Assembly (NCBI GenBank): GCA_002070955.1
Contig: MWEK01000001.1
Span: 80,103 to 144,102, forward strand
Source of the DNA: Planctomycetes bacterium ADurb.Bin069
GTDB taxonomy: Bacteria; Planctomycetota; UBA8108; UBA8890; UBA8898
Direction: 5' to 3'
Length of the DNA: 64,000 nt
The position numbers and the translations under genes are program-made. Below are positions 9,320 to 52,858 of this stretch, one piece after another. The first letter of the stretch is position 1, and every line of letters begins with the position of its first letter. Under the pieces are notes generated by a model. That model was not told the origin of the DNA. It worked only from the letters and a program-made list of their open reading frames with translations, and did no database searches.

Positions 9320-10072
9320 TGCCCGTTCTGTCATCCGGCGCGCCGGCCCTTGAGGCGGTTGAGCGGCAGCGTCGGGGACGAGGGGACTGAGCGTGGCGCC
9401 CAAGGACATTTGCCCGGACGGACACGCAACGACCGGTGGTTGACGGGCCGGCCGCCTTGCATGGCAACGCTGTCATGTCAATCAAGGCGTTGGACGCAGT
9501 CAAGGAGAAGACCGGGGCGTCGGCGGAAGCGGTCATGGCTGGGCTGACGCCTTCGCCATCGACCGGGCGACGGGCCGGGCAGGTGCGGCGCCGCGTAAGC
9601 ATTACCGGAGCGCCTGATATGCCGGGATGGCCATCGACGCGATAACGGCCCGCGTGTCCAGGGCGCGCGAGCCCGACTCGCCGGCCGGCGCGCATGCAAG
9701 ACCCGCGCTAAGGCGCGCGAGATCTCGCCGCCGAGCCGGTCGAGAATCGCGCCGGCGGTTTCGACGCTGGGCGGACATGGACCAAAGGAAGCCATCCACG
9801 CCGGTTTCCCGGCCTTGAAGTCCGCGCGACCACGCCGTCACTTGCGGAATCTCGGCCCCGACGAGCGGCAAGATCTTGCGGGACGCGACCGCTACTCTCG
9901 CGCCGGAGAGATCACTTGGGGTATGCGCGCCGTAGGCCGCGATGGAAACCTCGCGCACGCGCGCGCTTCCAAACCGCGCAGCAGCCTCCGCCCCCCTGTT
10001 GACAACCGCCCGAAAACCGTTACTGATGGAGCCGAAGTATCCGCCGAAACGGCGCGACTGGGAGGCGTTCAC

Positions 10073-26913: not shown

Positions 26914-27633
26914 TCAGGCCCGCGGCCGCTTCGTCTCCCAAGCCTGCACGAGCACCGCGGCGGCGGCGGCGATCGCGGTCTCCGTTCTCAAGGTGTAGGC
27001 GCCCAGGCCCGCCGGACGGCATCCGGCCGCAAGCATGGCGGCGTGTTCTTCTTCCGTGAACCCGCCTTCAGGACCGACAATGACCTCGTACGGGGGGGCC
27101 GCCGCCGCGGCGCTCGCGCCGAGGGGATCGCCGGCACCGGTATCGGCGACGAAACGCGTCCCCCCCGGCGCATCGGTGACGAACTCCTCCAGAAGGCGGC
27201 AGGGTACGATTTCCAGCCGGCGCGCGCGTCCGCTCTGTTTGCCGGCCTCCGCGGCGATGCGCTCCCAACGTTCCGTCCTGGGCTCAAGTCCCTTGACGGT
27301 GCGCGCGGTGATCAGCGGCACGAAACGCGCGACGCCGATCTCGACCAGTCCGCGAATCGCATCGTCCAGCCCCTTCTTGACGAGCGCCGCGGCCACCGTG
27401 ATCGGCGCCGGCGCGGGCGCCTCTTCGAACCCCTCGGCCAAGGCCACCTCGACGCGCCCCGCGGCGACGGCGGCGATGACGCCCCGGCGGCGACGTCCTT
27501 CCCCGTCGATGATTTCCACGAGGGCGCCTTCCCTCAAGCGGAGCACATCTCTTACGTGATGCGCCTCGCGGGCCGGAAGCGTAATCCGCGCTCCCCAAGC
27601 CGACCCCGGAACGTGGACACGCACGCGCCTCAC
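26914..27633 (-). CDS. rsmE: 16S rRNA (uracil1498-N3)-methyltransferase RsmE
   Basis: MRRVRVHVP...AHHVRDVLRLREG...VIVGPEGGFTEEE. The GTG start overlaps the upstream stop (GTGA). Confidence 0.85.
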   Translation of the reverse strand: MRRVRVHVPGSAWGARITLPAREAHHVRDVLRLREGALVEIIDGEGRRRRGVIAAVAAGRVEVALAEGFEEAPAPAPITVAAALVKKGLDDAIRGLVEIGVARFVPLITARTVKGLEPRTERWERIAAEAGKQSGRARRLEIVPCRLLEEFVTDAPGGTRFVADTGAGDPLGASAAAAAPPYEVIVGPEGGFTEEEHAAMLAAGCRPAGLGAYTLRTETAIAAAAAVLVQAWETKRPRA

Positions 27634-30455: not shown

Positions 30456-31027
30456 CGCTCCTCCTTGAGGACCAGGAAAAGGAAGCTCAGCCCGAACAGC
30501 CGCGGCGCGAGCCGCGCCAGCGCCGAGCCGGCGGCGTCGGCCGCGCGGCACCAGGGGGGGATGATTCCGACCGCGCGCTCGGCGCGCACCGCCGCTCCGG
30601 CCGCAGCGAACAGCCGCCGCGCCGAACGCAGTCCGAAGTGCCGGAGATGGGGATCCTCCGCGCCGCCAAGGGGCTCGGCGCCGAGGAGCAACGCGAGGCG
30701 CCGCAGGAGGTGCCACTCGTTCGGCAGCGACACCACGATCTCGCCTCCCGGCCGCGCCCGCCGCATGAGCGCGGCGAGGGCCGTGATCGGGTCGGCAAGG
30801 TGCTCGAGCACTTCCAGGGCGATGACGACATCGAACGGCCCCGGCGGCAGCGCGTCGCTCGCCAGGTCGCCCTCGATGACCGTGATCCCGCGGGCGCGCG
30901 CCTCCCGCGCCGCTGATGGCGCGGGCTCGACGCCCGTCACGGCGAAGCCCCGCGCCGCGAAGAACTCGGCCGCGAAGCCGGGGCCGCAGCCCGCGTCGAG
31001 AAGCGCGCCGTTCCGGATCGTCAGCAT
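30452..31027 (-). CDS. class I SAM-dependent methyltransferase (true start possibly upstream, see findings)
   Basis: LLDAGCGPGFAAEFF (motif I), VIALEVLEHL, RPGGEIVV. Confidence 0.8.
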   Translation of the reverse strand: MLTIRNGALLDAGCGPGFAAEFFAARGFAVTGVEPAPSAAREARARGITVIEGDLASDALPPGPFDVVIALEVLEHLADPITALAALMRRARPGGEIVVSLPNEWHLLRRLALLLGAEPLGGAEDPHLRHFGLRSARRLFAAAGAAVRAERAVGIIPPWCRAADAAGSALARLAPRLFGLSFLFLVLKEER

Positions 31028-31119
31028 TCCATGGGCGGCGCGGGCCCGCTGCAGGCTTCGCCGGCGCAGGCGTTCCCGAAGGGCGCCTTGGCGGGACTGC
31101 CAGTACCGTTCGTACGCGG

Positions 31120-32241
31120 TTACGGCGTCGATGGCGGACCTCCTCGGACGCTTTCCCAGGCCGCGAGCGTGCGTCGAAACGACGCGGCGGTCTCCCGCGC
31201 CGCCCGCACCTCGGCGCCCCGCGCGCCCGCGCGCCCGGCCAAGGCCGCCCGCAGCTCCGGCGCATCATACAGCTCCGCGATGGACTGCGCCAACGCGCGT
31301 CCGCCCACGGGCGGCGCCAGCAGCAACCCCTCGCGGCCCGAGCGCACCAATTCCCCGACTCCCCCCACCGCGGACGCAATCACCGGAAGCCCGCGGCAGA
31401 GCGCCTCCTGGACCACCAGCGGAGTTCCTTCGGATCTGCTGGGCAGGACGAGCACGTGGCTCGCATCCATCAGGGCCGCCACGCCGGCGGCGTCGAGATT
31501 CACGCGGACCTCGAAGCCGGCGCGCGCAAGCGCCGGCCCGAGCGGTCCGGCGCCGGCGCACACCCACCGCGCAAGCCGGCCGGACCCGAGCAGCCTCCGC
31601 GCGGCGATAAGCTCGCGCACGCCCTTGGCGGGGATGAAGTCGCCGCAGAACAGGATCGTGAACGGGCCGTCGGGACGCGGCGCCGGCGGCATGTTCTTGA
31701 ATACGGAAGCGACTCCCACCGGGAGATGCGCCACCGCGGCGGCACCGAGGGCCGCCGCCTTCCGACACAGGCTTCCCGACGCCGCGAACACCCCCGAGGC
31801 CCCCCGCACGACGGCCCGCGCCGCCCCGCGCAGAAAGCCGCCTCGGGCGGCGTACACTTCCAGGTCTGATCCGTGCGCCCAGGCGTACAGCGGAATCCCC
31901 AGCCTTCGCGCCGCCCAGAGCGCCGCCGGGCCCGAGGGCAGCACCCAGTGGACCAGCAGCGCGTCGGCCGGCCGGGCGCGTCCCTCGCGCACACACGCTC
32001 CGGCGGCCGACATGACATACAGCAGTTGCAGCACGCGCGACGGCGCGGCGGCCTTCAGGCGCACCACCGGCGCGGGAAAACCGACGGCCCCCTCGACTCC
32101 GCCGCGGGCGCCGGGCGCCACGACCCGGACGTCGAAGCCCTCCGCGCGCATCCCCTGCGTCAGAACGCGGATGAACCCGCCCGCACGGGGGAAACGCCGG
32201 CTAGGCCATGCGGCCGTCAGTGTCAAAAGCCTGCGGTGCAT
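31120..32241 (-). CDS. glycosyltransferase family 4 (GT-B fold)
   Basis: LPSRSEGTPLVVQEALCRGLPVIASAVGGVGELV (E-x7-E region). N-terminal GGFIRVLTQGMRAEGFDVRVVAP. Confidence 0.85.
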   Translation of the reverse strand: MHRRLLTLTAAWPSRRFPRAGGFIRVLTQGMRAEGFDVRVVAPGARGGVEGAVGFPAPVVRLKAAAPSRVLQLLYVMSAAGACVREGRARPADALLVHWVLPSGPAALWAARRLGIPLYAWAHGSDLEVYAARGGFLRGAARAVVRGASGVFAASGSLCRKAAALGAAAVAHLPVGVASVFKNMPPAPRPDGPFTILFCGDFIPAKGVRELIAARRLLGSGRLARWVCAGAGPLGPALARAGFEVRVNLDAAGVAALMDASHVLVLPSRSEGTPLVVQEALCRGLPVIASAVGGVGELVRSGREGLLLAPPVGGRALAQSIAELYDAPELRAALAGRAGARGAEVRAARETAASFRRTLAAWESVRGGPPSTP

Positions 32242-33007: not shown

Positions 33008-33103
33008 ATGGGCGGGCGCCGGCGGCGGCGCCCGCGCCGAAAGAAAATCATCCGGGAGGGCACCGGCGCCCCCCCGGATGATATCGGCGCCGAGCGCGAC
33101 GCG

Positions 33104-35770
33104 CTACTGACCGAAGCGCTCGATCTCCTCATGCCGGAGATCGACCAACTTCGCGGTGAGCAGGATGATCAGGCTGCGCCGCTCGCGCAGCTCGGCCTTG
33201 CGGCTCACGAGCAGGTTCAGCAGCGGGATGTCCCCGATAATCGGGATCGAGGATTGGTACATGCGCTCCTCCAGGCTCCGGAAGCCGCCCAGGAGCACCG
33301 TGCCGCCGTCCGGGACGGTGACCGACGTCCACGTGCGCTGGATGGACATTTTCGGCAGCCCGATCGGGACCTGCATGGCGGCGGCCATGACCGTGCCGAG
33401 GTTAATGAGCACGGTGGAAATCACGCCGCCTATCAGGGTCGCGAGCGTCGGCTGGACGTCGATGGTGATGTACTTGCGGTCCGCGCTCACGCTCGGGCGC
33501 ACATCCAGCACCACGCCTTCCTCGTTCACGTGCACCACCGGGTCCGCCACTTCCGTAAGGGTGTACGTCGTGCCGCCGGACACCAGCTCGTAATCGGCGA
33601 TATACGATCGCTGTGTGATCACCGACACGTACACGCGCTGGCCGTTGTGCGCCGTGACCTCGGGCGCGATCACCGACTTGACCCCGCTCTCCTCTTGAAC
33701 CGCGCGCACGATGGCGTTGATCTGGTACGGATCCACCATGGTCAACTGCAAGCTCAAGCCGCTCAGTCCGCCGGGACCGCCGAAAATACGGTCGCCGCGA
33801 ATCAGGCTCGCGTAGCCGTCCAGGGTGTTCTGCAGGCGCCCGACCAACTCGGGGGGCTTGCCGTCCGCCTTTCTTCTCGCGATCGCTTCGATACTGTCGG
33901 TGAATCCCGGATCCTGCCCGCCCGTTCGGCTGTCGTGGATCCGGCCGTGGTACATGTTGAACCCGGTCGAGCTGCGCTGGCTGAGGTTGCGGTAGTCGAT
34001 GCCGATATCCTCCAGAAAATCGCTGGTGATATCCACGAAGCGCGCCTTGACCACCACGAAGAGATCGGAGTCCTGCCGCAGTTCCTCCAGCACGCGGGCC
34101 ACCCTCGCGTGCACCTCGGGGCTGGCTTCAACGAGGAGCTGCCCGCGGTGGATCTCGATGCGGTTGATCTCCCCGTCCCAGACGGAATCGCCGCCCGTGC
34201 TCTCTTGGACCAGCTTCTGAAGCTGCTCGGGCTCGAGCGTTTTGGATTCCTCGCCCTCGCTGAACTGGAAGCCCGTGCCGCCGGGCCCGCCGCCGGACTC
34301 GGATTCCTCGTCGGGAGATCTGATCTCGAGGCGCGGGCCGGGGAAATCCCTGATCTTGCTCAGGATGTCCGTCACCGTGTAGATCTTGAGGATGGCCAGG
34401 CCTCGCGCCCTCTCAGGCACCGTGATCGTCAGGACGTTGTTCCTGAAGGTGTAGGCCAGCCCCGTATTGAGCATCATCAGATCAAGCGCATCCTCGAGCT
34501 TCATCTGCGTGAGGTTGAGCTTGACCTTGGTCTCCTCGGGATCCACGTTCTTGTCGATGTGAATGTTGATCCCGGTGATCTTCTTAATGTAATCGATGGC
34601 ATCGGCGAGGGGCTTGTTGTCGAAGTCGATGGTGATCCGCGCGGTCGCCAGGCGCCGTTTGATCTCCCTGACCTCCTCGGACTCCTCGATGACGCCGATT
34701 TGCACGTCGGCCTCGCGCGCCCTGATAATGTCCCAGCGCTCCTCGCCGGGAAACTCGAAAACGCTCGAGGGGGGTTTGGCCGCATCCGCGAGCCCTTCCC
34801 AGGTCAGCTTCGCGTGCTCCTTGAGCGCCGCGTCGTGCTCCTGCTCCCAAAGGGTCCTGTCCTTCTTTCTGGAGTTCTTGAGAAGGGCCCGCGCCTGGAT
34901 CTGGCGCGGATTCTCCTTCAGGACCACTTCGCAGATCTGCATGCACTGCGTGTAATCCTGGCGGTGATAAGCTTCGCTCGCGGCCTCGACCAGCACCCTG
35001 ATACGCTCCCTCTTCTGTTGGTCGCGGAAGGCCGCATCCTTCGCGATCGCCGCCCGGATCGCCTCCTCTTGCTGTTCACGGGTTTCGCCCGCGCGCCGCC
35101 GCAGCAGATCGTTCGTCTCGCGCAGGAGCTCCTCCAGGCGCCTCTGGCGCCCTTGCGTCTCGGCCGAGGCCTCGAACAAAGCCAGGCGGGCTTTCCCCTG
35201 CTGGAGCATCAACTGGGCTTCCTGGAGCTGGTGCTCCCCCATGGCCTTCGCGGCATCCTCGATGAGGCGGTCGATTTCGTTCAGGCGCGCCTCGCGCTCG
35301 ACCTTCAATTCGGCGGTCCAGTCCTGCATGAAACTCCCGACGGACGCTTCGCGCTGGCCGAGCATCGTCTCGCACCGGCGCAGCTTGCTGAACGCTTCGT
35401 CGTTCTCGGGGTCGGCTTTGCGCGCCTGCTCGTAGAACTCCATTGCGGCCTTGTAATCCAACTCATCGTACTTTTTATCGCCGCGGAGGACGTACTGCGC
35501 CGCCAGTTGGCGGCTGATGCTCTTCTTCTCTTGGATCGCTTGGAGGATCTCGGCTTCGCCCTCCGCGGACCTTTCGGGCACGGCCGGCGCGGGCATGGGG
35601 GCTGCGGCGGGCGTCTCGGTCTCCCGGCGGCCCGGCTTCTCGTCGGTCTGCGCCGCCGCCGAACCCTCCTTCGAGATGTTGGTCCGCGCCGGGGGCGTCT
35701 TCTGCGGCTGCAGGCAGCCGGCGCCCGCGACGAGGGCTCCGATCGTAAGTACGGCAGTGAACCTTCTCAT
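33104..35770 (-). CDS. secretin-family outer-membrane channel (paralogue 2) with long N-terminal TPR/coiled-coil region
   Basis: ATG at 35770 follows AAGGAG. Signal peptide MRRFTAVLTIGALVAGAGC. N-domain RITIDFDNKPLADAIDYIKK. C-terminal secretin signature VPDGGTVLLGGF...IPIIGDIPLLNLLVSRK. Confidence 0.85.
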   Translation of the reverse strand: MRRFTAVLTIGALVAGAGCLQPQKTPPARTNISKEGSAAAQTDEKPGRRETETPAAAPMPAPAVPERSAEGEAEILQAIQEKKSISRQLAAQYVLRGDKKYDELDYKAAMEFYEQARKADPENDEAFSKLRRCETMLGQREASVGSFMQDWTAELKVEREARLNEIDRLIEDAAKAMGEHQLQEAQLMLQQGKARLALFEASAETQGRQRRLEELLRETNDLLRRRAGETREQQEEAIRAAIAKDAAFRDQQKRERIRVLVEAASEAYHRQDYTQCMQICEVVLKENPRQIQARALLKNSRKKDRTLWEQEHDAALKEHAKLTWEGLADAAKPPSSVFEFPGEERWDIIRAREADVQIGVIEESEEVREIKRRLATARITIDFDNKPLADAIDYIKKITGINIHIDKNVDPEETKVKLNLTQMKLEDALDLMMLNTGLAYTFRNNVLTITVPERARGLAILKIYTVTDILSKIRDFPGPRLEIRSPDEESESGGGPGGTGFQFSEGEESKTLEPEQLQKLVQESTGGDSVWDGEINRIEIHRGQLLVEASPEVHARVARVLEELRQDSDLFVVVKARFVDITSDFLEDIGIDYRNLSQRSSTGFNMYHGRIHDSRTGGQDPGFTDSIEAIARRKADGKPPELVGRLQNTLDGYASLIRGDRIFGGPGGLSGLSLQLTMVDPYQINAIVRAVQEESGVKSVIAPEVTAHNGQRVYVSVITQRSYIADYELVSGGTTYTLTEVADPVVHVNEEGVVLDVRPSVSADRKYITIDVQPTLATLIGGVISTVLINLGTVMAAAMQVPIGLPKMSIQRTWTSVTVPDGGTVLLGGFRSLEERMYQSSIPIIGDIPLLNLLVSRKAELRERRSLIILLTAKLVDLRHEEIERFGQ

Positions 35771-35897
35771 GCCCGTCTCCTTTGGATTGCTTCGTCCGTT
35801 CATATGCTTCTCGCAACGGTTCGCGCGCCGCGCGGGTGTTCGCCTTCGCGCGCCGCGACGCCGCCTCGTTCCTCCCCGCCTCCTCCTTATGCCCCGC

Positions 35898-38432
35898 TTA
35901 CGGGAACGTGAGCTTCTCTTCTTCCTTGACGATCACGATGTCCGACTTGATCAACACGTACAGGCTGCTGCGCAGCCGCGACTGGCCCTGCCGCCCGAAC
36001 AAGATGTTGAGAAGCGGGATCCGCTGAAGCAGCGGGATGCCGATGCTTTTGTCCTGCTCGATCACCTTCTTCAGGCCGCCCACGAGGACGGAGCCGCCGT
36101 CGGGAATGGTGATCGTCGTCTGAATCCGCGACAGCAGAATCACGGGCAACTCGACCTGTACCATGGTGAAGCCCTGGGCGAGGCTCAAGTCCGCGTACTT
36201 CGAATCGATATGCTTGGCCGTGGTGGGATTCACCTCAAGGATCACGAACTTGCGGTCGTGCGTCACCGTGGGGCGGATCTCGAGCAGCGCTCCCACACGA
36301 AACGAGCCGATCAGCGGGTTGATCACCGGGCTGACGCCGGTCTGGTTGACATCGACGTCCTTGATATACGCGATCTGGTCGATCACCATGGTGTGCGCCG
36401 TCTGGGAATCGAAGGCGAGGACGCGGGGGGCGCCCAGCGAGAGCATCTTCTGCTTCTTCTGGACCATGGAAAGGATGCCCTCGAGCTGGTAGTCCTCCAG
36501 CTTGTTGAACTGCAGCGCCATACCGCCCTGGGCCGTGATGTTGAACGGCGTGATTTCGGTGCCCATGACGCCGCTGTAGTCGGAAATGTTGGCGCCGATC
36601 ATCCCGTACCGCTCGCGCCGGTCGAGGAACACATACCCCGACGCCAGCGAGGTTCCCAGGCCGTTCACATCGGGAATCGGATACTCCGGCGTGCTCTCCA
36701 CCGTCCCGCCGATGTTGACGCCGATCTCCTCCAGCAGGTTGTCCTGGATGTCGATGAAACGGGCCTCGCTCGCCACCAGGACCCCGGACAGCTTGCGCAA
36801 GCTCGCCAGCAGGTCGCTGATCTTGCGATGATTCTCCAGGGACGTCCTGACGACAAGCTTGCCGGTTTGCAGCTCGGCGGTGCCGTTCTTGTCGTCCCCG
36901 CCGAGGATGCGTTTGCGAATCAGCTCGACCAACTGCTCGCCGGGAAGCCCGGTTCTGGCCGTTTCAGTCTGCTCCACATCCAGCGTGACGGCCCCGCCCT
37001 GCTCCTTCCCGCCCGCGAGGCTGACCGACAAGTCCGGCGCCGGATAGTCCGGATGCTGATTAGCGATGTCCTCGACGGAGTAGAAGGCCAGATGCATTTT
37101 CTCGGTCAGCGAGCTTCTCGGCCCGATAACCACGGCGCCGTTCTGAATCTGGTAGCCGTAGCCTTCGCCCACGGACTCCAGCACGATGTCCAGCACGTTC
37201 TTGAGCATGAGCCCCTGGACTTCCGGCAGGTTGACCTTCAGGTCCTCGGACTCCATGGCCTCGCGGGCGGCCTTGTTGGGCACGAAGCTGATGCCCGCGC
37301 CGACGCCCGGCCCCGCCAGTTGGCCCAGGTAATCGAGCACCTCTTGGAGCGGACGATCCTCGAAGCTGATCCGCGGAATCCTGGTGGTCTCCAGGCTTCT
37401 GCGCACTTCGCGGTTCGCGATGGGTTCTTCCGCCGCGACCTGCTCCTCGAGGGAGATGCGCTCCTCGCCCAGCTTTTCCCAAACCCTGCGCGGCGGAAAC
37501 TGGAAGATGTGGTGGTAGGACACCGTCGTCTCCATGATGCCGCGCAAGACGAGATCCCAGTTCCTCCGGGTCTCGCGCTCGATCTTGTCCATGGTGAACA
37601 GGTGCCGCAGATACCGCGCCCGGGCGCGGATGGCCTGGGCCTCGGCGTCGCGGGGATCGATCTCGAGCACCAGCAATGCCTGCTGCTCCGCCTTGTCGAA
37701 CCGGTTCTCCTGGAGGGCCTCCTCGGCCTGGGTCTTGTACAGTTTGATGCGGTTCTCGATGTACACCAACTCGCGGACGCGGTCGCCCTTGACGCGATCT
37801 CTGAGATCGGCCTCCAGCCGCCGCTGCTCCTCGGCCTTCTGATCGGCCCCTTTCCGCGCGCACGTGTCCATATGCGCCCGCGCGGCCTTGACCAGATCGG
37901 GCATGTTCAGGCTCCAGGGATAATGGCTGTCAATCTCCACCACGCGGGAGAATTTCTCGAGGGCCTGCTCGTACTTATTCTGGGCCATCAAGGCCTCGCC
38001 ATCGGCAAAGAGCCGCTTGAGTTGGGCCTGCGCCTGCTCGACGAGCAGGACTTGGTCATCTTCGATCTTCCGGATGGTCTCCCGCCGCTCGCCGACGAGG
38101 CGCCCCAAGAGGAACTGCACCTCGTCCAGCTCGACCTGCGCGGCGCTCAGCGTCGGATCCAGTCGGAGCGCCTCCTGGAGCTCCTTCTCCGCGAGTCCGT
38201 ATCGGAGCTTGTCCTTCAGCTCGCGAGCTTTTTCCAGGTGCCTGCGGGCGGTTTCCCGGCGCACCTCCACCGCCAACTTGGTCTCCGCGCTCACCGCCGG
38301 AATGTCGGTCGGCGCCGCGGGGTCGGGCGCCGCCTGCGCGACGGCGCTCCAGGCGAGCGCCGCCGCCAGCGCGATCGCCCGCCCGCCCGTCGGAAAGAAT
38401 CTTCCTCCGCCCAGAAGCTCATGTGCGTTCAT
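35898..38432 (-). CDS. secretin-family outer-membrane channel (paralogue 1) with long N-terminal TPR/coiled-coil region
   Basis: ATG at 38432. Signal-like AIALAAALAWSAVAQA. IPRISFEDRPLQEVLDYLGQ. C-terminal IPDGGSVLVGGL...IPLLQRIPLLNILFGRQ. Confidence 0.85.
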   Translation of the reverse strand: MNAHELLGGGRFFPTGGRAIALAAALAWSAVAQAAPDPAAPTDIPAVSAETKLAVEVRRETARRHLEKARELKDKLRYGLAEKELQEALRLDPTLSAAQVELDEVQFLLGRLVGERRETIRKIEDDQVLLVEQAQAQLKRLFADGEALMAQNKYEQALEKFSRVVEIDSHYPWSLNMPDLVKAARAHMDTCARKGADQKAEEQRRLEADLRDRVKGDRVRELVYIENRIKLYKTQAEEALQENRFDKAEQQALLVLEIDPRDAEAQAIRARARYLRHLFTMDKIERETRRNWDLVLRGIMETTVSYHHIFQFPPRRVWEKLGEERISLEEQVAAEEPIANREVRRSLETTRIPRISFEDRPLQEVLDYLGQLAGPGVGAGISFVPNKAAREAMESEDLKVNLPEVQGLMLKNVLDIVLESVGEGYGYQIQNGAVVIGPRSSLTEKMHLAFYSVEDIANQHPDYPAPDLSVSLAGGKEQGGAVTLDVEQTETARTGLPGEQLVELIRKRILGGDDKNGTAELQTGKLVVRTSLENHRKISDLLASLRKLSGVLVASEARFIDIQDNLLEEIGVNIGGTVESTPEYPIPDVNGLGTSLASGYVFLDRRERYGMIGANISDYSGVMGTEITPFNITAQGGMALQFNKLEDYQLEGILSMVQKKQKMLSLGAPRVLAFDSQTAHTMVIDQIAYIKDVDVNQTGVSPVINPLIGSFRVGALLEIRPTVTHDRKFVILEVNPTTAKHIDSKYADLSLAQGFTMVQVELPVILLSRIQTTITIPDGGSVLVGGLKKVIEQDKSIGIPLLQRIPLLNILFGRQGQSRLRSSLYVLIKSDIVIVKEEEKLTFP

Positions 38433-38518
38433 CGTCGCAACCTCTCTCCGGGACACGCGCCTCAAGAGCCCGTGCCATGCCGCTGTCTTCGCATTGGCGC
38501 CACAGGCGCGCTCTCCTT

Positions 38519-39757
38519 TTACCTGAAGGGACCGCCGCCGGCATCGTCCTCGGCGGCCCCGCCCGCTTCATCCTCCGCCGGCTCCTTCTCGGCTCCCGCC
38601 GGCTCCTCGGCCGGAGGCTCGTCGCCGGCCTCCCGGTCGGGCCCGGGCGCCTCGGAAGCCGCCTCCGCCGGAGGCGTTTCCTCCGGCGTCAAGGTCTCTT
38701 CGCCCTCCTCCTCCTGCGGCGCCGCGGGCAGCTCCCAGGCTTTGGGACACTCGATCGATTCCGGCACCCACACCCCCTGCGGAAGCTGGATCTCCCTGCG
38801 CGTGTCGATGTCCTTCAGCACCGCCACAAGGCCCTTCTCTCCCTGCTTGATGACGTTCAGGTAGTACCTCGTGCGCGGCAGGAGGTCCTTGTCCGCGTCC
38901 GGTTTGCGCATCAGTCCGAGCAGCTCTTCGCGCTTGATCATGGGCTCGGAGACGGGCGCGCCCGCCGCGTAGTCGTAGGCGTCGACTTTGAAGTACCCTT
39001 CTCCCGCGCCGGAAAGATCATCAGCGATCTTTCCCTGGACGAACATCACCCGCAGATCATCGGGGATGACGTAGCTGCCAAGATCGGCCTCGGGCGGCGC
39101 CGGCTCCCCGCTCGTTTTCGTGGGCCCCGAATCCGCCCGCCACTTCGATTTGCTCCGAGTCGCGGTGGTCGTCACCCGATAGGTGTAGCTTGAGCCCGCC
39201 TTCACATCGGCATCCACGCACGTGTAGACCTCCGTGCCATCCACATGGGGGATGGTCGCAACCACCCGCCACGCGGCGGCGCCGGCGGCGCGGCGTTCAA
39301 CCCGGGCCGTCGCGGCGCTGACCTCGCTCAGCTCGCCGAACCTGAAGGTGACCGTGGCGACGGGTTTCTTCTTCTCCGCATCCCGGGTTATGGCAACGCT
39401 GGTGATGGCGGGCTCGCCGTGCACGGAGTCTAAAGTCGCCGCACGGCTGTAGATGCGCACGACGGCCGGCTGAACTTCCATGGCGAAGGCCGTCCACGCC
39501 TCCTTCGGTATCGACGCTTTGTCAGAGCGCCGCGTGATGGCCTCCCTCGGATCGGGAGGGGCCTCCGCGGGCAGCAGCTCGGCATCCTTTGCGTGGTCGT
39601 TGATCAACTTCAGATGCTGCGCGATGCGGTCCTGGCTGGTCTTGATCTTGTCCTCGCCCGTCATGGTGACGGCGATCATAGCGACGATGATCGCCGCCAC
39701 GATGCCGAACGCGAGCCGGTCGCAATGGGCTGTAAGTCGCTCCTTAACCGACGCCAT
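38519..39757 (-). CDS. membrane-anchored hypothetical protein with Fn3-like domain and acidic Pro/Glu-rich tail (occupies the PilP position)
   Basis: 412 aa. N-terminal TM FGIVAAIIVAMIAVTM. A beta-rich segment ends in AGSSYTYRV. The C-terminal ~70 aa are E/P/A-rich. The call is positional only. Confidence 0.5.
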   Translation of the reverse strand: MASVKERLTAHCDRLAFGIVAAIIVAMIAVTMTGEDKIKTSQDRIAQHLKLINDHAKDAELLPAEAPPDPREAITRRSDKASIPKEAWTAFAMEVQPAVVRIYSRAATLDSVHGEPAITSVAITRDAEKKKPVATVTFRFGELSEVSAATARVERRAAGAAAWRVVATIPHVDGTEVYTCVDADVKAGSSYTYRVTTTATRSKSKWRADSGPTKTSGEPAPPEADLGSYVIPDDLRVMFVQGKIADDLSGAGEGYFKVDAYDYAAGAPVSEPMIKREELLGLMRKPDADKDLLPRTRYYLNVIKQGEKGLVAVLKDIDTRREIQLPQGVWVPESIECPKAWELPAAPQEEEGEETLTPEETPPAEAASEAPGPDREAGDEPPAEEPAGAEKEPAEDEAGGAAEDDAGGGPFR

Positions 39758-39779
39758 GCTTGCTCCTCACGCTCCTGCG

Positions 39780-40835
39780 TTACTGGGCGAATCCTTTGTA
39801 TTTCAACACGCTCAGGGTGAGCCGCATCGTGGCCGTGGGCAGCTTCAGCTCGAAGTCCAACGGCGCCCGCTTCGCATCGTCCAGCCTCGGGAACGGCTCC
39901 TCCGCCTTGTAGGACGCCTTGAGCAGCCGATCCTTCTGCTTGGCCAGCACACACTCCTCGACGACGAAGAACACCGGGTCATCGGCATCCGCGGCGCGCA
40001 GTTCCAAGGCGTGCAGGAACGAACCGAGGTCTTCGAACCGAATCTCGCCGGCCGCCGTCAACCGCACGCGCTCGTACAGGTCGCGCGCGTCGTACTCGGG
40101 CACGACGGCGGCCTCCGGCGTTTTGGGCGCGGCCGCGCCCCTTCTCCCGGTCCTGGCGGGGGGCGGCGGCTTGGATCCCGCCGGGGCCGACGCCTTCGGT
40201 TTCTCCTCGGCCGCCCTGGTCCCCTTCTTCTTCTCGAAAACGACCGACGTCAGTCCGCCCCACCCAGCCTCGGTCGCCGCCGTGACGAGCGCCGTCGTGA
40301 TGCGGCACATCTGCGCCGCCGCGATCAGGTCGGCTTCGTTGCTCGAGATCGTCGGGCTCAACGAAATCTTGGACTGCGACGCCTCGGGCGCCGCGGCCGC
40401 GTGGGCCGGATACACGCGCTTCACGTACTCGGCGCGCACATCGGAGTACTTCCGGTTCAGATCGTCCAGCGCCGTATTGAACGCGGAGCCGAACGCCGCG
40501 TCCTCATGCGCCGTGAACGTTTCGCCGCCCTTGACAAGCTGCAGGCGCGCGAGCTTCTCGGCCCGTTCGGCGTAGAACCGCTCGACGTCCGCAAGAATCT
40601 TCCGCAGCGTCTCCTGGAGGTCCGTGTCGGCCTCGAGTTTACGCTTCGTGGGAAGATCCTCGGGTTTCCGCTTGGCGTAGCCGGCCAGCACGCTTTCGTT
40701 CTTCGAGATCTCGCGCTGCAGGCTGTGATACTTGCTGATGCCCCAGCTCCAGGTGACGAAGTAGGCGAAGGCTCCGATCGCGGCGAGCATGGCGATCACG
40801 CCGACCAGGAATCCGTTCTTCTTCAAGCTCTCCAT
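39780..40835 (-). CDS. membrane-anchored coiled-coil protein, PilO-like / Amuc_1100-like by architecture
   Basis: 351 aa. N-terminal TM FLVGVIAMLAAIGAFAYFV, then a coiled coil, a Pro/Ala/Lys linker and a C-terminal alpha/beta domain ending TMRLTLSVLKYKGF. The layout resembles my recollection of Akkermansia Amuc_1100. Not verified. Confidence 0.45.
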   Translation of the reverse strand: MESLKKNGFLVGVIAMLAAIGAFAYFVTWSWGISKYHSLQREISKNESVLAGYAKRKPEDLPTKRKLEADTDLQETLRKILADVERFYAERAEKLARLQLVKGGETFTAHEDAAFGSAFNTALDDLNRKYSDVRAEYVKRVYPAHAAAAPEASQSKISLSPTISSNEADLIAAAQMCRITTALVTAATEAGWGGLTSVVFEKKKGTRAAEEKPKASAPAGSKPPPPARTGRRGAAAPKTPEAAVVPEYDARDLYERVRLTAAGEIRFEDLGSFLHALELRAADADDPVFFVVEECVLAKQKDRLLKASYKAEEPFPRLDDAKRAPLDFELKLPTATMRLTLSVLKYKGFAQ

Positions 40836-40841
40836 GACGAC

Positions 40842-42971
40842 CTACTCCTCGACGGCGCCGTCGGTCTCCTCCCCGGGAGAATCCGGCGGGAGCGCCTCCG
40901 GTTCGCCGGCATCCTCGTGAATCTCCGCCGGACCTCCCGCGGGCGATTCCTCGGGTTCCTCGGACGAGGCGCCCGCAGCGGCGGCCGCCGCCTTCTCGCT
41001 GACCGTCCACGTGAGACTGAACAGGTAGTACTTGTCTTCCTCGATCGCGACGCCCTCTCTGGCTCCCTGCGGCTCCCGCTTTTTCTTCTCTTGGTCCCGC
41101 AGGAACCTCGGATCGACGAGGAGCCAGTTCCGCGCGAATTGGCGGTCTTCCTCCGCCACGGGATCGGCGAGCGCCGTTTGATCCAACAGCTGGAGCCTCG
41201 GCGCCGACGTGATGTGCCCGGCGAGGGTACGATTCTTCTTCAGGGCCGCCGAAAGGGGCGCCACCACCACGGCATCCACGAAGCGACGGCTCTCGTCGGG
41301 AGTCTCGCGGGCCAGCACGGCGCCCGTCAGGGTGAAAACGTAGGCCAGCGGGGCCGGCGCGGACTTGGCCGCCTGGTCTTTGGCGGTGGTGGCAGCCCCG
41401 GTTCCCGGGCGCTCGGTTTCAACGCCCTTCAGCGACGCCTGGAGGGACAGCAACCAGGCCATCTCCTTGTGCACGGAAGCCATGCGCCTCAGGGCCTCGG
41501 CCTCGGCCTCGTTTTCGTCCTCCTGCTTGGCGATAAAGATCGTCCGCGCCCGCGGAGGCTCGGCGCCCAGCGGCGCGGTGACGCTGCCCGGCGTCTCGCT
41601 CCGGTAGGCGTTTTTCTCGATGGCGGCGAAGAGCTTGTTGACCTCGGCCAGGGATTGGGAGAAGTACGGGCGCTCCTGTCCGATCTGCGCGAGGGCCTCG
41701 ATCTTCGCCTTGAGCAGCGGAATGTCGCTCGTCTTCGCGAGCTGTTTGGCGGTGCCCTCGAGCTGCTTGACGATGTTGTCGCTCTTGTCGTTCGAGACGC
41801 GGGCGTTCTCGGCTTTCTTCGCGTAGGTCTGGCCGAGCACGACGAGCGCGCCGAGGAGGACGCCCCCGGCGATGAAAACCATCTTCCGCTTGCGGGTGAA
41901 CGCGAGCTGCACCCGCTGCTCGCGCGGCATGAGGTCGACGTTCGTGGCGGCCAGTCCCAGGCCCTGCAGCCCCGCGCCCAGCGCCGGCGCCAGCGACGAG
42001 ATTTGGGTCCTCAGCTCCGCCACATCGAGGCCATCCGCCGGCCGCATGCGGGCCAGCGCGGCCACGCGCTGCACCTTCCACCCGAGCCGCTCCTGGACGA
42101 CCTGGCCGAGCCCCAGCGTGAAGCTGCCCTGTCCAAGGAGGTACGCCGTTTCGAACTCGGTCGCGGCGATCTGGCGCCGGTAAAACGCCACCGACCGCTG
42201 CACCTCCGTGGTGAAGTCTCCGAGCACCTTCTGCAGCCCCGCGAAAATCTTGTCTTTCTGCGGGCTCTTGGCGGCCTGGCGCTTCACGCGCTCGGCCTCG
42301 GCGAAGGTCAGCCGGAAGCGCTGGCTCAGGTCGCGGGTGATCTGATTGCCGGAAAACGGGAGCGCACGGATCCAAAACGCGCCGTTGTCCACCAAGATCA
42401 GCGCGGTGTGCTCGGCGCCGACATCGAGGATCACGCTGGGCGCCTTCGGCCGCAACTCGTAAAGCACGAAATTGAGCAGCCCTAGGTCGCCGCAGATCAC
42501 CTGTTGGCCGCGGATCCCGTAACCGTCGAGTTCAAGCAAGAGATCGTCCACCGTCTCGCGCCGGGCGGCGAAGATGCCGACCTCCCGCTCCTGGCCGGCC
42601 GCGTAGTCGCGCGGCACGAGCTGCCAGTCCCAGACCACTTCCTGAATAGGGAAGGGGATCTGCTGCCGTGCTTCGAAGTTGACCAGTTCCTGGAGCTTCT
42701 TCTCATCGTCGGCGACGATCTTGATGAACCGCGGGAGAGTGTCCTGCCCCGGCAGGCAGACCACGAAGGGGTCGCGGGTCGAATTGCGGGAGGTGAAGAT
42801 CTGCAGGGCTTCCCGCGCGCCCCCGATGGAGTCGACGCCCTCCGGACCGATGTCGTATTCAATCCGCTCGGTCCCTTGGACAATCACTTGCATGCCGACG
42901 CGGCGCAAGTGAACCGCCTTGAGGGCGAACTTGCCGATATCGATGCTCCAGACCGCGCTGAAACCCGCCAT
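40842..42971 (-). CDS. pilM: PilM (actin-like ATPase fold) fused to a PilN-like TM segment and a large periplasmic extension
   Basis: ATG at 42971 follows GAGG. WSIDIGKFALKAV, ILDVGAEHTALILVDNG..IRALPFSGNQITRDL (PilM/FtsA-like). A TM segment near residue 400 (MVFIAGGVLLGALVVLGQ). About 300 further residues end in an acidic tail. Confidence 0.8.
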   Translation of the reverse strand: MAGFSAVWSIDIGKFALKAVHLRRVGMQVIVQGTERIEYDIGPEGVDSIGGAREALQIFTSRNSTRDPFVVCLPGQDTLPRFIKIVADDEKKLQELVNFEARQQIPFPIQEVVWDWQLVPRDYAAGQEREVGIFAARRETVDDLLLELDGYGIRGQQVICGDLGLLNFVLYELRPKAPSVILDVGAEHTALILVDNGAFWIRALPFSGNQITRDLSQRFRLTFAEAERVKRQAAKSPQKDKIFAGLQKVLGDFTTEVQRSVAFYRRQIAATEFETAYLLGQGSFTLGLGQVVQERLGWKVQRVAALARMRPADGLDVAELRTQISSLAPALGAGLQGLGLAATNVDLMPREQRVQLAFTRKRKMVFIAGGVLLGALVVLGQTYAKKAENARVSNDKSDNIVKQLEGTAKQLAKTSDIPLLKAKIEALAQIGQERPYFSQSLAEVNKLFAAIEKNAYRSETPGSVTAPLGAEPPRARTIFIAKQEDENEAEAEALRRMASVHKEMAWLLSLQASLKGVETERPGTGAATTAKDQAAKSAPAPLAYVFTLTGAVLARETPDESRRFVDAVVVAPLSAALKKNRTLAGHITSAPRLQLLDQTALADPVAEEDRQFARNWLLVDPRFLRDQEKKKREPQGAREGVAIEEDKYYLFSLTWTVSEKAAAAAAGASSEEPEESPAGGPAEIHEDAGEPEALPPDSPGEETDGAVEE

Positions 42972-43245
42972 GAGTACCTCGACTGCGTGGGCTTCGTTTC
43001 GCTCTCCGCCTTCGCGCGCCCGGCGCACGAAGGACATGGTCGCTCATTCGCCGGGCCGGTTGCTCGGTGCACAATCGCACCCCGGCGCAGCACACTCTAC
43101 GTCCGCGAGGGCAAGCATCGGGGAGGGACACAACAACTGATCATCCCAGCCGGACGCGCGGCATCGGGATCGAACCCATTGGGTTTCTCCTCCGTTACTT
43201 GCTTCTCGTAAACAATGTACTGCGGCTCGGTCAATACAGACTTCG

Positions 43246-43274
43246 ATTATAAGCCGTCGCCTCTTGCGGGTCAA
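43246..43274 (-). promoter_or_regulatory. sigma70-type promoter (TTGACC-17 nt-TATAAT) upstream of pilM
   Basis: The minus strand reads gcTTGACCcgcaagaggcgacggctTATAATcgaag. -35 at 43274..43269 and -10 at 43251..43246. This implies a ~270-nt leader. Confidence 0.6.
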
Positions 43275-48609: not shown

Positions 48610-51600
48610 CTAATCGGAGCCCCAACTCCTGAGCACGACCTCCTGGTCTCGGTCGGCGAGGATCACCGCGAGCGGCGCGCTCCTGATTCCTCGTCCGGCC
48701 AGCGCCTGCAGCGTGTACGCGCCGGGAACGAGCCCCTCGAAGCGGAAGCGCCCCTCGCCGTCCGTTCGCGCGCGCGCCTGCTTCTCGGGGCCGCTCAGCG
48801 CGACGACGGCCCCCGCGGCCCGCGCGCCGTCGGGCAACACAACGCTGCCCGAAAGCGCGAGCCCCTTGGCAAGCTGCAACGCCACGGGCTCGGGGGGGGC
48901 GTCCTCGCGGACCGCCAGCGCCGGAGAGCGCGCCGCCGCGTAGCCGTCGTGGTGCGCCTCGATCGTGTATTCTCCCGGCGCAATTCCGCGCAAGGTGAAG
49001 GCGCCGTCCTTGTCGGAGACCCCTTGGCCGGCGGCAAGAAAGTCGAAGCCCTCCGCGCCTCTGCGATGCTCGCGGCCCGAGCCGCGTTCCGCGCCCATTT
49101 CACGATCCGCGTCGCGCGCCGGCGCCGCGCGCACGCGCGCGCCCTCGACCGGGGCACCCGCGGGCGACCGCACCGTCCCCCGGACCTCGACGCCCGGCTC
49201 CAGCACGATATCGATGCCGGCGACACGCGCCCCTTCCCCGACCCGGAGCCCCCGCAGCACGAACTCCGGAAACGCCTCGGATTCGACTCGCAGATCGTAG
49301 ACGCCGGGCGCGACGGCCTCGAGGAGAAACGCGCCGTCGGCTGCATCGAACACACGGGGCGCCTGCGGCCGCGCACCCGCGTCGCGCCCGCCGGAGAGCG
49401 TCATCCGCACCGGCCGCACCGGCGCCCGTCCCGGAAGGCCGCGCACGAAGCCGCTGAGCTCGCCGGGCAAAACGAGCGTGCACACCAGCGCCTCGTTCGA
49501 AACCACCGCGGCCCGCTCTCGAAACGGCAGGTAACCCTCCGCGCGGACCTCGATGGCGCAGCCCGCGCCGGGGCTCAGCCCCCCCGCCTCGAACCTTCCT
49601 TCCTGATCGCTGAACACGCGCCGCCTGAGCCCGGCGCCTGCCACCGCGACGGCGGCACCCACGACCGGCTCGCCCCGCGCATTCACGAGCTTCCCGCGCA
49701 TCCGCGCCTCCGCCCGCAGCGCGATCGCTAGGTCCTTGACCTCCCCCGCGGCCAACGCTGCCTCGGCGCGATAGGGGGCATACGGCGCCTGATCGATCCA
49801 GACGAGGCAGCGTCCCGCCTCCAAGCCCCCGATGCGCCAGGCGCCTTCCCGGTCCGTCACCCGCTGCCGCGCGCGGCTCCCGTCCCGCGCGGCCGGGCCG
49901 CCATCTTCGCGCCACCCCTGGCGCGCCTGCACGCGGATTCCCGCCAGTTTTCCGCCGTCCGGACCCACCACCGTCCCCTTGAGCACCGCCCCGGGCATCA
50001 TGACGATGTCCAGAGACGGCCCGTCGCGCGCCGGATCGCCGACGGTGAAGGCCGCGCTGGCCGCGGGCAGGTAGTCCGGGTGCGTTGCGCGCACCCGCGC
50101 GGCGGCCGCCGCGCTTCGAAGCGGCAGTTCCCAGGCCCCGTCGGCCGCCGACAGCACCGCTCGCCGCCCGCCGAAGGCCGCTCCGCCCGCCTCGCGGTTC
50201 CCGGCAAGCGCCAAGCTCGCGCCGGCGATGGGCTCTCCGTCCGCGCCGCGCACCTTCCCCCGCACGACTCCGGCCTTGCCGAGCACCACGGTGACGGCGG
50301 CATGCTCGCCCGGGACCAACGTGATTCTTCGATCGCCGGGAAGGCGGCCGGCGGCCTCCGCACTTAGCACATAGGCGCCCTCGGGCAGGCCGGCGAAGGC
50401 GAGCCTGCCGCGATCATCGGCCCGCGCGCTTCGGGGTCTTACCGCCCCTGGAAATCCCTTGCTCTTTTCCGACGCCGCATCCCCCGGACGGAGACTCACG
50501 AACGCCTCCGCCAGGGGACCGCCTTCTCCCCGCACCTCGACCGCGAGCATGGCGCCCCGCGCCAGAACCAGCTCCAGCGGGGTCGTTCCCGGCGCAACCC
50601 GCCTCACAAGCGGCGCGAAACCGTCGCCGGCGACCTGGAGCGTATAGGTCTCGGGGTACAGCGTCGTCAGGCGGAAGAAGCCCCGGTCGTCGCTCGTCGT
50701 CTCGATGCGGGGCACAACGGCGCCGTCGCGGGGCTTGATTCGCGCCGTGAGCGTCACCGCGGCGCCCGCCACCGGCGTTCGATCCGGCCCCAGGATCTTT
50801 CCGGCGAGCGGCAGCCCGCGGGCCAACTCGAACCTCTCCGGCGCGCGCATTGCCGCGGCGACGCGCACGCCCGGAAACACGGCCGTGACGAAATCCTCCC
50901 GGCCGACGATGGCGGTGTACGTGCCCTCGCGGAGATTCTCGATGGCGAAGGCGCCGCGCGCGTCAGTCTCTCCGCCCCAGCGCGTTGCAAAACGCTCCGG
51001 ACGCTGGTAAACCGCCAGGGACGATCGCAGCGCATCGCGCGCATCCTCGAAGGCGAGCGTGATCTCGGCGCCCGCCAGGCGCGCGCCCTTCTCGTCGGTC
51101 ACCTCGCCGTGCAGCACGGCGCCCGGCGGCAGCGTGAGGAGGAGGTCGTCGCAGGGAGCCTCGACGTCGAAGGCCGCGGCGCGGGCGTGCCCCTCCTTGA
51201 CGGCGACCAGGTCGTAGAACGCCGGCGCCGCGGCGGAGAAGGCGAACCTGCCGTCCGCTCCCGTCAACACGTCCTCGGGCGCCGCCGCGAGGGCGACCCG
51301 CAAGGCTTCGTCCGGCGGCGCGGCGGCGCCGGGAGCGCCTTCGACCCCCCCCGAGCCCCGGGCCCTTACGGCGGCGTTCGCCACGGCGAATCCGCGGGCA
51401 TCGACGACGCGGCCCGCGAGCTTCGCTCCGGGCGCCAGGGTGAGCACCGTGTCCACGGCGGCGTTCTCGGCGACGGCCAACACCGGACCGAGCCCCGGCG
51501 CATACGCGCCGCCGAACGCCGCCAGACGGCACGCCTCGCCTTCCACACCGTGAAAGGTGAAGCGCCCGTTGCGCTCCGTTGCGGTGCGCGCCCGGCTCCC

Positions 51601-51909
51601 GAGGATTTGCCGCGCGAGCCGCGCGATCTCGGCGGCGCGCTGGGGCCTGGCCGCCGGGCCTCCCGCGGGCGCTTCGCGCCCGGCCTGGGCACCCTCGAGC
51701 TTGGCATCGGCGCTCTCCTCCCACTCGCACAGAACGACGGTCGCGCCTTCGATCGGCAGCCCATCGGCATCGACCACGACGCCGGAGACCGTCGCCCCGC
51801 GCGGACCGAGCGCGTCGGCGCCGTGCGATCCGCTTGCCAGCAGCGCGACGGCGCAACACACGACCGCATGGATTCCGCCCGCGCCGGGCAGAAACGCCGA
51901 CCCTCGCAT
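48610..51909 (-). CDS. secreted protein of ~12 tandem carboxypeptidase-regulatory-like (prealbumin-fold) domains
   Basis: 1099 aa with a signal peptide. Recurring units about 85 aa long, such as GRVVDARGFAVANAAVRA, GKVRGADGEPIAGASLAL and GSVVLPDGARAAGAVVAL...TDGEGRFRFEGLVPGAYTL. GGAGGTG lies before the ATG. Confidence 0.7.
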   Translation of the reverse strand: MRGSAFLPGAGGIHAVVCCAVALLASGSHGADALGPRGATVSGVVVDADGLPIEGATVVLCEWEESADAKLEGAQAGREAPAGGPAARPQRAAEIARLARQILGSRARTATERNGRFTFHGVEGEACRLAAFGGAYAPGLGPVLAVAENAAVDTVLTLAPGAKLAGRVVDARGFAVANAAVRARGSGGVEGAPGAAAPPDEALRVALAAAPEDVLTGADGRFAFSAAAPAFYDLVAVKEGHARAAAFDVEAPCDDLLLTLPPGAVLHGEVTDEKGARLAGAEITLAFEDARDALRSSLAVYQRPERFATRWGGETDARGAFAIENLREGTYTAIVGREDFVTAVFPGVRVAAAMRAPERFELARGLPLAGKILGPDRTPVAGAAVTLTARIKPRDGAVVPRIETTSDDRGFFRLTTLYPETYTLQVAGDGFAPLVRRVAPGTTPLELVLARGAMLAVEVRGEGGPLAEAFVSLRPGDAASEKSKGFPGAVRPRSARADDRGRLAFAGLPEGAYVLSAEAAGRLPGDRRITLVPGEHAAVTVVLGKAGVVRGKVRGADGEPIAGASLALAGNREAGGAAFGGRRAVLSAADGAWELPLRSAAAAARVRATHPDYLPAASAAFTVGDPARDGPSLDIVMMPGAVLKGTVVGPDGGKLAGIRVQARQGWREDGGPAARDGSRARQRVTDREGAWRIGGLEAGRCLVWIDQAPYAPYRAEAALAAGEVKDLAIALRAEARMRGKLVNARGEPVVGAAVAVAGAGLRRRVFSDQEGRFEAGGLSPGAGCAIEVRAEGYLPFRERAAVVSNEALVCTLVLPGELSGFVRGLPGRAPVRPVRMTLSGGRDAGARPQAPRVFDAADGAFLLEAVAPGVYDLRVESEAFPEFVLRGLRVGEGARVAGIDIVLEPGVEVRGTVRSPAGAPVEGARVRAAPARDADREMGAERGSGREHRRGAEGFDFLAAGQGVSDKDGAFTLRGIAPGEYTIEAHHDGYAAARSPALAVREDAPPEPVALQLAKGLALSGSVVLPDGARAAGAVVALSGPEKQARARTDGEGRFRFEGLVPGAYTLQALAGRGIRSAPLAVILADRDQEVVLRSWGSD

Positions 51910-52692: not shown

Positions 52693-52858
52693 GACGATCT
52701 CCTCCGGTCGCGCGCAACCCGCCCGGCCGGCGCTCGCCGCGGCGCGGCGCCCGCAACCGCGCTTATTTTCGCGACGCTTTTGAGACTTTGCAAGCCTGCC
52801 TGCGCCCTTTTCCGGCCGAGGGGCGAGTTCGGCAAGTCTTTTGCTACGTGGGAAAGCC

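Follow-up and report, generated by a model that had tools for sequence, protein, structure and literature searches.

A minus-strand locus in DNA of Planctomycetes bacterium ADurb.Bin069 (contig MWEK01000001.1; the whole 64,000-nt stretch analysed is called here the window) raises the question of which envelope machine could be formed by a PilM-like protein, two membrane-anchored partners and two secretins that have no pilin, ATPase or platform gene beside them. A preliminary description, made from the sequence alone, noticed that the gene order resembles that of the Amuc_1101-1098 locus of Akkermansia, part of the heavily studied Amuc_1098-1102 cluster, which includes the gene of the immunomodulatory protein Amuc_1100, and left open a stand-alone trans-envelope complex and a type IV pilus-like machine with remote core genes. 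Our results allow us to conclude that the operon is the planctomycete counterpart of the Akkermansia locus, so that a known system is met here in a new variant and no novel type of machine is involved. We estimate at about 0.6 the probability that it encodes the alignment scaffold and the outer-membrane pore of a type IV pilus-like machine of the PVC (Planctomycetes-Verrucomicrobia-Chlamydiae) type, with the filament and motor genes situated elsewhere. The five genes are referred to below, in the order of transcription, as gene 1, gene 2, gene 3, secretin 1 and secretin 2.

To compare the two loci, we used gut-metagenome loci of Akkermansia that are 100% identical to the confirmed Amuc_1100 sequence (the Amuc_1100 query is identical to PDB 6LAD/6KNY over residues 31-317). 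In the locus chosen, L083, the genes follow one another as Amuc_1102 (242 aa, MUL2A), Amuc_1101 (612 aa, MUL2B), Amuc_1100 (317 aa), Amuc_1099 (337 aa) and Amuc_1098 (907 aa). The window shows the same order on one strand, with a PilM-type fusion, an Amuc_1100-type protein, a second anchored protein and a secretin of roughly 900 aa bearing tetratricopeptide repeats (TPR), and the membrane topology agrees gene by gene. Hence, the order given in the preliminary description matches the actual Akkermansia locus. Both loci are devoid of ATPase and platform genes. The differences are that the secretin is duplicated in the window, that the window proteins are longer and bear low-complexity tails, and that a uracil-DNA glycosylase gene is found upstream, where Akkermansia has the archaeal-pilin-like Amuc_1102. 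The NCBIfam scores of the window proteins all lie far below the equivalog cut-offs, which makes these proteins distant relatives and not orthologues in the NCBI sense.

The first link to Akkermansia is gene 1. Its top family was the NCBIfam Amuc_1101 family PilM-like pilus complex protein (E 4e-60, residues 76-472; 204 bits, under the equivalog cut-off of 650), the match extending beyond the PilM domain and across the transmembrane (TM) segment. TIGR01175 was matched with E 2e-35 and 122.5 bits, slightly below the cut-off of 133, and the nearest solved PilM was the Thermus competence protein PilM (PDB 2YCH, E 1.8e-21). Direct comparison with Amuc_1101 revealed 29% identity in BLASTP (E 2e-39), while hhalign against the Amuc_1101 family gave a probability of 100 (E 3e-46), with residues 23-651 aligned to 1-606 of 612. 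Judged by sequence, gene 1 is a full-length homologue of Akkermansia Amuc_1101, as the preliminary description had implied. The probable true start is M23 at 42971, the end coordinate given in that description, since homologues and Amuc_1101 begin there; the protein would then comprise 709 aa.

The PilN INLLP peptide is known to dock PilN into PilM. The NVDLMP motif, which follows the actin-like domain of gene 1, aligns with ...ARINLLP, the stretch contributed by PilN to the engineered PilM-PilN(1-12) chimera from Pseudomonas (5EOU), and its proline (P371) is invariant among the 21 gene 1 homologues. Next comes the TM segment, kept at about 365-405 in related loci, and then the periplasmic part, where a helical stretch and conserved alternating-hydrophobic strand-like blocks (Y.FTLTGAV, PL, F..W) precede a Glu/Pro tail (residues 684-731, 40845-40988; Glu+Asp 31%, Pro 15%). 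A query with a fragment around the TM segment was uninformative. The proposed PilM-PilN fusion is thus supported as regards the motif and the anchor, the periplasmic part being PilN-like by its placing, and the estimate of about 300 periplasmic residues ending in an acidic E/P-rich tail holds. What had to be abandoned is the idea that the fusion is an elaboration specific to the planctomycete locus. Amuc_1101 also bears the N(V/I)DL.P motif ahead of the TM segment (NIDLEP; TM at 374-396 vs. 383-406 in gene 1), and therefore the fusion is common to both loci.

The secretins provide the second link to Akkermansia. Secretin 1 combines a Pfam Secretin domain (E 4.2e-24) with TPR and matches the NCBIfam Amuc_1098_fam (E 1.3e-20), including profile positions 105-482; for secretin 2, the Secretin domain (E 4.8e-20) is accompanied by STN (E 4.4e-9), and the Amuc_1098_fam match reaches E 7.1e-25. 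The two Amuc_1098_fam scores (73 and 87) are under the equivalog cut-off of 750. In tblastn, Amuc_1098 gave a match with E 1e-13; this protein is described as 907 aa long, with TPR at 71-239 and the secretin domain at 650-876 (PMC4960237). Secretins 1 and 2 share 24% identity over the full length (E 8e-58), so that the duplication noticed earlier is real and the two are ancient paralogues. In the related loci L006-L008, L036, L041 and L045, the TPR-secretin is followed, at the place of secretin 2, by a 970-1110 aa protein without a Pfam match (e.g., L008 13170-16088); this protein may be a strongly diverged paralogue of the secretin or some other partner.

All five open reading frames (ORFs) of the proposed PilM-like/PilO-position/third-protein/duplicated-secretin locus were indeed found on the minus strand, with coding-type G+C content at third codon positions (0.84-0.88). 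The window has about 70% G+C, and its proteins are 100% identical to proteins from metagenome-assembled Planctomycetota. The intergenic gaps are, in order, 6, 22, 53 and 94 nt. Upstream, the uracil-DNA glycosylase gene ends at 43383, which leaves a spacing of 345 bp and makes gene 1 the first gene of the unit. Taken together, the promoter, the terminator (Table 1), the short gaps and the upstream glycosylase gene indicate that all five genes belong to a single promoter-to-terminator unit, with nothing pilin-like ahead of gene 1.

Table 1. Features of the operon in the window (positions are those of the window).
Feature	Coordinates	Strand	Basis or remarks
Gene 1, PilM-PilN-like fusion, Amuc_1101 family	40842..43037	-	ORF 731 aa
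Gene 1, cytoplasmic PilM actin-like domain, residues 32-358	41964..42944	-	Pfam PilM_2 (PF11104), E 1.4e-25
Gene 1, NVDLMP motif, residues 366-371	41925..41942	-	counterpart of PilN N-terminal INLLP peptide
Gene 1, single TM segment, residues 383-406	41820..41891	-	hydropathy scan
Gene 1, periplasmic part, ~325 residues	40845..41819	-	alignment of 21 homologues and tail composition
Gene 2, bitopic periplasmic protein, probable distant Amuc_1100 (PilO/PilN-like) family member	39780..40835	-	351 aa
Gene 3, bitopic periplasmic protein, tandem Fn3/Ig-like domains and tail	38519..39757	-	412 aa
Gene 3, Fn3/Ig-like domains	about 39113-39436 and 38753-39070	-	AF2 model
Gene 3, disordered acidic tail	38522-38731	-	AF2 model
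Secretin 1, N-terminal TPR and C-terminal secretin domain, Amuc_1098-like build	35898..38465	-	
Secretin 2, paralogue of secretin 1, TPR, STN and secretin domains	33104..35803	-	
Sigma-70-like promoter TTGACC-17-TATAAT	43246..43274	-	11/12 matches; about 210-275 bp upstream of gene 1
Intrinsic-terminator-like hairpin	33047..33082	-	16-bp stem, 10 G-C pairs, T-rich tail; 22 bp past secretin 2 stop

Is this arrangement peculiar to one genome? Relatives were collected as 582 PilM-like proteins, one genome per species, and the best 80 loci were used. Nearly all of them come from Planctomycetota (e.g., Tautonia, Tundrisphaera, Singulisphaera and Aureliella). Behind the long PilM there are almost always two proteins anchored at their N-termini, the first of 300-870 aa and the second of 360-890 aa, and the triad of PilM-N, gene 2 and gene 3 was found again in most of the 80 loci, so the arrangement is not due to chance. 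Complete planctomycete genomes with the triad include Tundrisphaera sp. TA3 (NZ_CP195100) and Aureliella (OY829846). Word-indexed searches gave few relatives (5 for gene 2 and 6 for gene 3), and the protein families were built from synteny in these loci. Iterative hidden Markov model (HMM) searches seeded by genes 2 and 3 returned positional equivalents only; for gene 3, a seven-member subfamily connects to 55 position-3 proteins. A secretin is adjacent in about a third of the loci, two large genes are found in some, and in others unrelated enzymes follow the triad; no conserved upstream or downstream neighbour other than the secretin was found in the related loci. These data argue that a planctomycete counterpart of the Amuc_1098-1101 locus is conserved across the phylum.

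Gene 2 was described at first as a protein with a TM segment and a Pro-rich linker that resembles Amuc_1100. The TM segment (residues 6-31) and a Pro/Ala/Lys-rich linker (203-246) are present; Pfam and NCBIfam gave no PilO match, and both single-sequence and profile searches of the PDB sequences produced noise. The family of gene 2 turned out to be more informative. The iterative HMM search recovered 71 ORFs, which represent the position-2 protein of about 70 loci, and 12 of 35 family members matched the NCBIfam Amuc_1100_fam (best E 3.6e-6 and 5.3e-6). The matches are colinear in two regions: profile positions 1-87 correspond to the N-terminus of the proteins and positions 190-245 to their C-terminal domain (best E 5.3e-6). 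The family HMM detected Amuc_1100 with E 2.8e-6 at Z=1 (one planned comparison), and hhalign gave a probability of 62 with the single Amuc_1100 sequence in a beta-alpha-beta core (residues 252-299 vs. 198-240) and of 32 with the Akkermansia family alignment, colinear over 234 columns. The crystal structure of Amuc_1100 is reported to be PilO/PilN-like (bioRxiv 10.64898/2025.12.30.696933). Judging from the profiles, position and topology, a distant homology of the gene 2 family to Amuc_1100 is probable but not proven; the resemblance first ascribed to gene 2 holds through its family, transitively and weakly, and not for gene 2 taken by itself. When the gene 1 and gene 2 families were compared by hhalign for a PilN/PilO-type paralogy, their TM segments alone could be aligned.

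The third protein departs more from its Akkermansia counterpart. The AlphaFold2 (AF2) model of gene 3, built on a 50-sequence alignment, has a mean predicted local distance difference test (pLDDT) score of 83.5, exceeding 95 for residues 110-345. Besides a TM helix and short helices, the model has two beta-sandwich domains, and its tail is disordered. The top Foldseek matches of the model are tandem fibronectin type III (Fn3) proteins such as contactins, titin and cytokine receptors (E 3e-4). An exhaustive profile search revealed 69 relatives, including multi-Fn3 proteins matched up to eight times at residues 148-230, one of which has six Pfam fn3 domains. Thus, the single Fn3-like beta domain suggested initially has become two in tandem. 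The N-terminal TM helix is of the uncleaved type. Direct sequence and profile searches of the PDB sequences with gene 3 returned noise, and no match to the GspC homology region (HR) or to PDZ was found. With Amuc_1099, gene 3 has in common only the third position, the N-terminal anchoring and a DK motif plus TM; its tandem Fn3/immunoglobulin (Ig)-like domains and its tail show no detectable similarity to Amuc_1099. The acidic tails are indeed present in genes 1 and 3, but the acidity itself is clade-specific: in the gene 3 family the charge of the tail varies, being acidic in the clade of the window, while other relatives have Lys/Arg-rich tails. The extreme C-terminus of the family usually retains a Gly/Pro-flanked Phe (GPFR, GRFK, NPFK, GFGE, LFGDD), and this ending looks like a tethered short docking motif.

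The described features have to be weighed against the possibility that the operon encodes an ordinary, diverged alignment complex of the type IVa pilus or of type II secretion (PilMNOPQ or GspLMCD), with no PVC-specific character and no link to uptake. The PilM domain and both secretin domains do fit standard families. The layout also resembles that of PilMNOPQ in Pseudomonas, Myxococcus and Thermus: a PilM actin-like domain, a PilN-type docking motif and then a TM segment, a bitopic partner in the PilO position, a third periplasmic component and a secretin, all in a tight operon. However, by far the best matches were to the Amuc_1101 and Amuc_1098 families and not to the standard PilM/PilQ models, and PilM and PilN are one polypeptide in the window, a covalent fusion that it has in common specifically with Akkermansia. 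Type IVa PilQ carries AMIN domains, whereas the N-termini of the window secretins carry TPR; PilP is a lipoprotein whose beta-sandwich domain binds the secretin, whereas gene 3 is TM-anchored and bears Fn3 domains. Unlike the complete type IVa set, the window operon has no pilA, pilB, pilC, pilD or pilT nearby, and Pfam and NCBIfam show no PilN, PilO or PilP matches in it. The preliminary description had singled out high-confidence matches of genes 2 and 3 to standard PilO and PilP profiles as decisive; no such match was found for either protein.

As for type II secretion, GspL unites in one chain an actin-like domain in the cytoplasm, a single TM segment and a ferredoxin-like domain in the periplasm, and in function it amounts to a PilM-PilN fusion; GspM corresponds to PilO, and GspC is a TM-anchored, non-lipidated bridge to the secretin. 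Gene 1 is a single chain like GspL, and gene 3 would be a TM-anchored bridge like GspC. Also in favour of an ordinary complex are the weak GspM matches that 4 of 35 relatives of gene 2 show in their N-terminal parts and a match of the gene 2 family profile to Myxococcus PilN (E 0.21), but the GspM similarity is marginal (E 0.006-0.02, N-terminus only), the cytoplasmic domain of gene 1 matches PilM_2 and not GspL, and the window lacks GspE, GspF and pseudopilin genes. In sum, we regard an ordinary pilus or type II alignment complex as unlikely.

A different question is posed by the missing filament and motor genes. Scanned with Pfam, the large coding-type ORFs of the entire window showed no T2SSE, T2SSF, peptidase A24 or N_methyl domain and, apart from the operon, proved to be mostly housekeeping genes. 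The prepilin motif G[FMLIVY][TS]L.E does not occur in any of the six frames of the window, and an NCBIfam scan of its other hypothetical proteins gave no Amuc_1102, Amuc_1099 or pilin model. The absence of pilin, prepilin peptidase, PilB/PilT and PilC genes, reported initially for at least 20 kb on either side, thus holds for the whole 64-kb window.

Such an absence of filament and motor genes within 64 kb would be expected if the operon encoded a stand-alone trans-envelope conduit without a pilus or pseudopilus, in which the PilM-N/partner scaffold gates a secretin pore exporting polymer or slime. The model for it is provided by the GspD/PilQ-family secretin nozzles of cyanobacteria and myxobacteria, and genes for a glycosyltransferase, a haloacid dehalogenase (HAD) phosphatase and a large polytopic TPR protein do lie directly downstream. 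To our knowledge, however, PilM-type proteins serve solely as adaptors for PilB/PilC-type motors. Moreover, the downstream genes lie beyond the terminator that follows the secretins, these neighbours are not conserved among the loci, and the Akkermansia homologues are linked with pili-like structures. Slime-secretion secretin nozzles are documented (PMC12475490); nevertheless, we find a conduit of this kind quite improbable for the operon. Of the two options left by the preliminary description, remote core genes now appear preferable to a stand-alone complex: the Akkermansia locus likewise sits apart from other pilus genes (bioRxiv 10.64898/2025.12.30.696933), and the secretin is non-adjacent in many planctomycetes, which indicates that split encoding is the norm.

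One more candidate function is DNA uptake, with the secretin and the scaffold handing DNA over to ComEC. A gene for a ComEC-type competence channel (52841-54919, plus strand; PF03772, E 4e-50) is located about 10 kb from the operon, the nearest solved PilM is a competence protein, and HofQ DNA-uptake porin models match secretin 2 weakly. But the HofQ matches are limited to the generic secretin C-terminus, the ComEC gene is on the opposite strand with unrelated housekeeping genes between, the related loci do not keep it as a neighbour, and ComEC is widespread in bacterial genomes. A competence machine is therefore hardly credible here.

We thus return to a type IV pilus-like machine of the PVC type, for which the operon would supply the alignment scaffold and the pore. 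The PilN-like part of gene 1 would pair with gene 2, in the manner of PilN and PilO, through helical and alpha/beta regions, while gene 3 would take the place of PilP, its Ig-like domains and tail connecting the platform with the secretin ring at the periplasmic domains of the latter. The TPR regions built into the secretins may substitute for a separate pilotin or PilF-like protein, and the two paralogues might form one mixed ring or two alternative rings. On the cytoplasmic side, the PilM ring would recruit an extension ATPase and a platform protein encoded elsewhere, and this motor would polymerise pilin-like subunits whose genes, too, lie outside the operon. If the MUL2 locus is taken as a guide, the filament would most likely serve surface or polymer capture and the delivery of large substrates to the periplasm. 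In Akkermansia, this locus is needed for mucin acquisition (bioRxiv 10.64898/2025.12.30.696933; PMC13174399; PMC12418764).

Several observations weigh against this reading. No pilin, ATPase, platform or peptidase gene is tied to the operon within the 64 kb. Amuc_1102 gave no tblastn match in the window (E up to 1) or in the 80 planctomycete loci (E up to 0.01). Gene 1 has no Pfam PilN match; its periplasmic half retrieved nothing in a PDB profile search, and hhalign of this part alone with the C-terminal half of Amuc_1101 gave no match. Gene 2 itself has no match above noise to Amuc_1100_fam, PilO or GspM, and its AF2 model, based on five homologues, is too poor (pLDDT 40) to bear out the alpha/beta domain described at first. 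For gene 3, neither PilP nor GspC (HR) was among the top 50 PDB fold matches, an NCBIfam scan of 35 family members yielded no Amuc family or PilP match, and hhalign with Amuc_1099 reached probabilities of 0.5-7.6, limited to the N-terminal DK motif and TM. Gene 3, placed earlier where PilP would be, consequently shows neither a PilP-type fold nor detectable homology to Amuc_1099. Finally, the role in polymer capture or uptake is suggested by the analogy with MUL2 only.

Other genes in the window deserve mention. The 1249-aa protein encoded at 27630-31379 (minus strand) contains several hydrophobic segments between residues 313 and 703 as well as C-terminal TPRs; its gene sits downstream of those for a family 4 glycosyltransferase (GT4) and the HAD phosphatase, right beyond the operon terminator, and the three may form an envelope polysaccharide module of their own. 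Neither these HAD, GT4 and TPR genes nor the genes upstream of the operon were accepted as parts of the system: the terminator intervenes, and they are not conserved neighbours. At the beginning of the window, a gene for a Ras/Arf-like small GTPase lies between those for a TPR plus Roadblock protein and a Roadblock/LC7 protein (3-1166, 1410-2522 and 2691-3104 for the trio in order, plus strand). MglA/MglB-type polarity modules steer pili in Myxococcus; the trio, about 38 kb from the operon, is a putative module of this type by its domain content. A 1099-aa protein with about ten CarboxypepD_reg-like repeats (48610-51909, minus strand) and a 703-aa protein with a terminal dockerin domain (19706-21817, plus strand) are likely to be surface-exposed or secreted. 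Apart from the gene for a small treble-clef zinc-finger protein (8103-8564, minus strand), the region 8100-9800 has no convincing ORF, and its G+C content at third codon positions is reduced. Neither the Rfam scan nor the tRNA scan of the window returned a match.

In the literature searched, the conservation of MUL2 is treated within Verrucomicrobiota only (PMC13174399), and no described planctomycete homologue of Amuc_1100 was found. The present comparison suggests that the Amuc_1098-1102 cluster, viewed in that literature as verrucomicrobial, has a recognisable counterpart that forms a core module throughout the Planctomycetota. For the two phyla, the PilM-PilN fusion would be an ancestral trait, and the third component appears as a swappable part, represented here by a tandem Fn3 protein. 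The phylum-wide module, the shared fusion and the swappable third part provide a comparative frame for working out the role of the machine.

For planctomycetes, one further connection may be considered. Their crateriform structures are complexes that span the envelope, fasten the outer membrane to the cytoplasmic one and bear fibres binding dextran before its uptake. Both the fibres and the crateriform structures have been reported to bind dextran (PMC5394234). A molecular identity for the crateriform structures was not found in the literature searched. It is a speculative and, in our estimation, rather doubtful suggestion that the triad with the TPR-secretins forms their genetic basis, in which case Planctomycetota and Verrucomicrobiota (with MUL2) would share an ancestral PVC machine that captures large polymers by means of fibres and imports them. 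Genetic tools exist for Planctopirus and Gemmata. The operon thereby offers candidate genes for the crateriform structures, for their fibres and for the import of macromolecules in planctomycetes.

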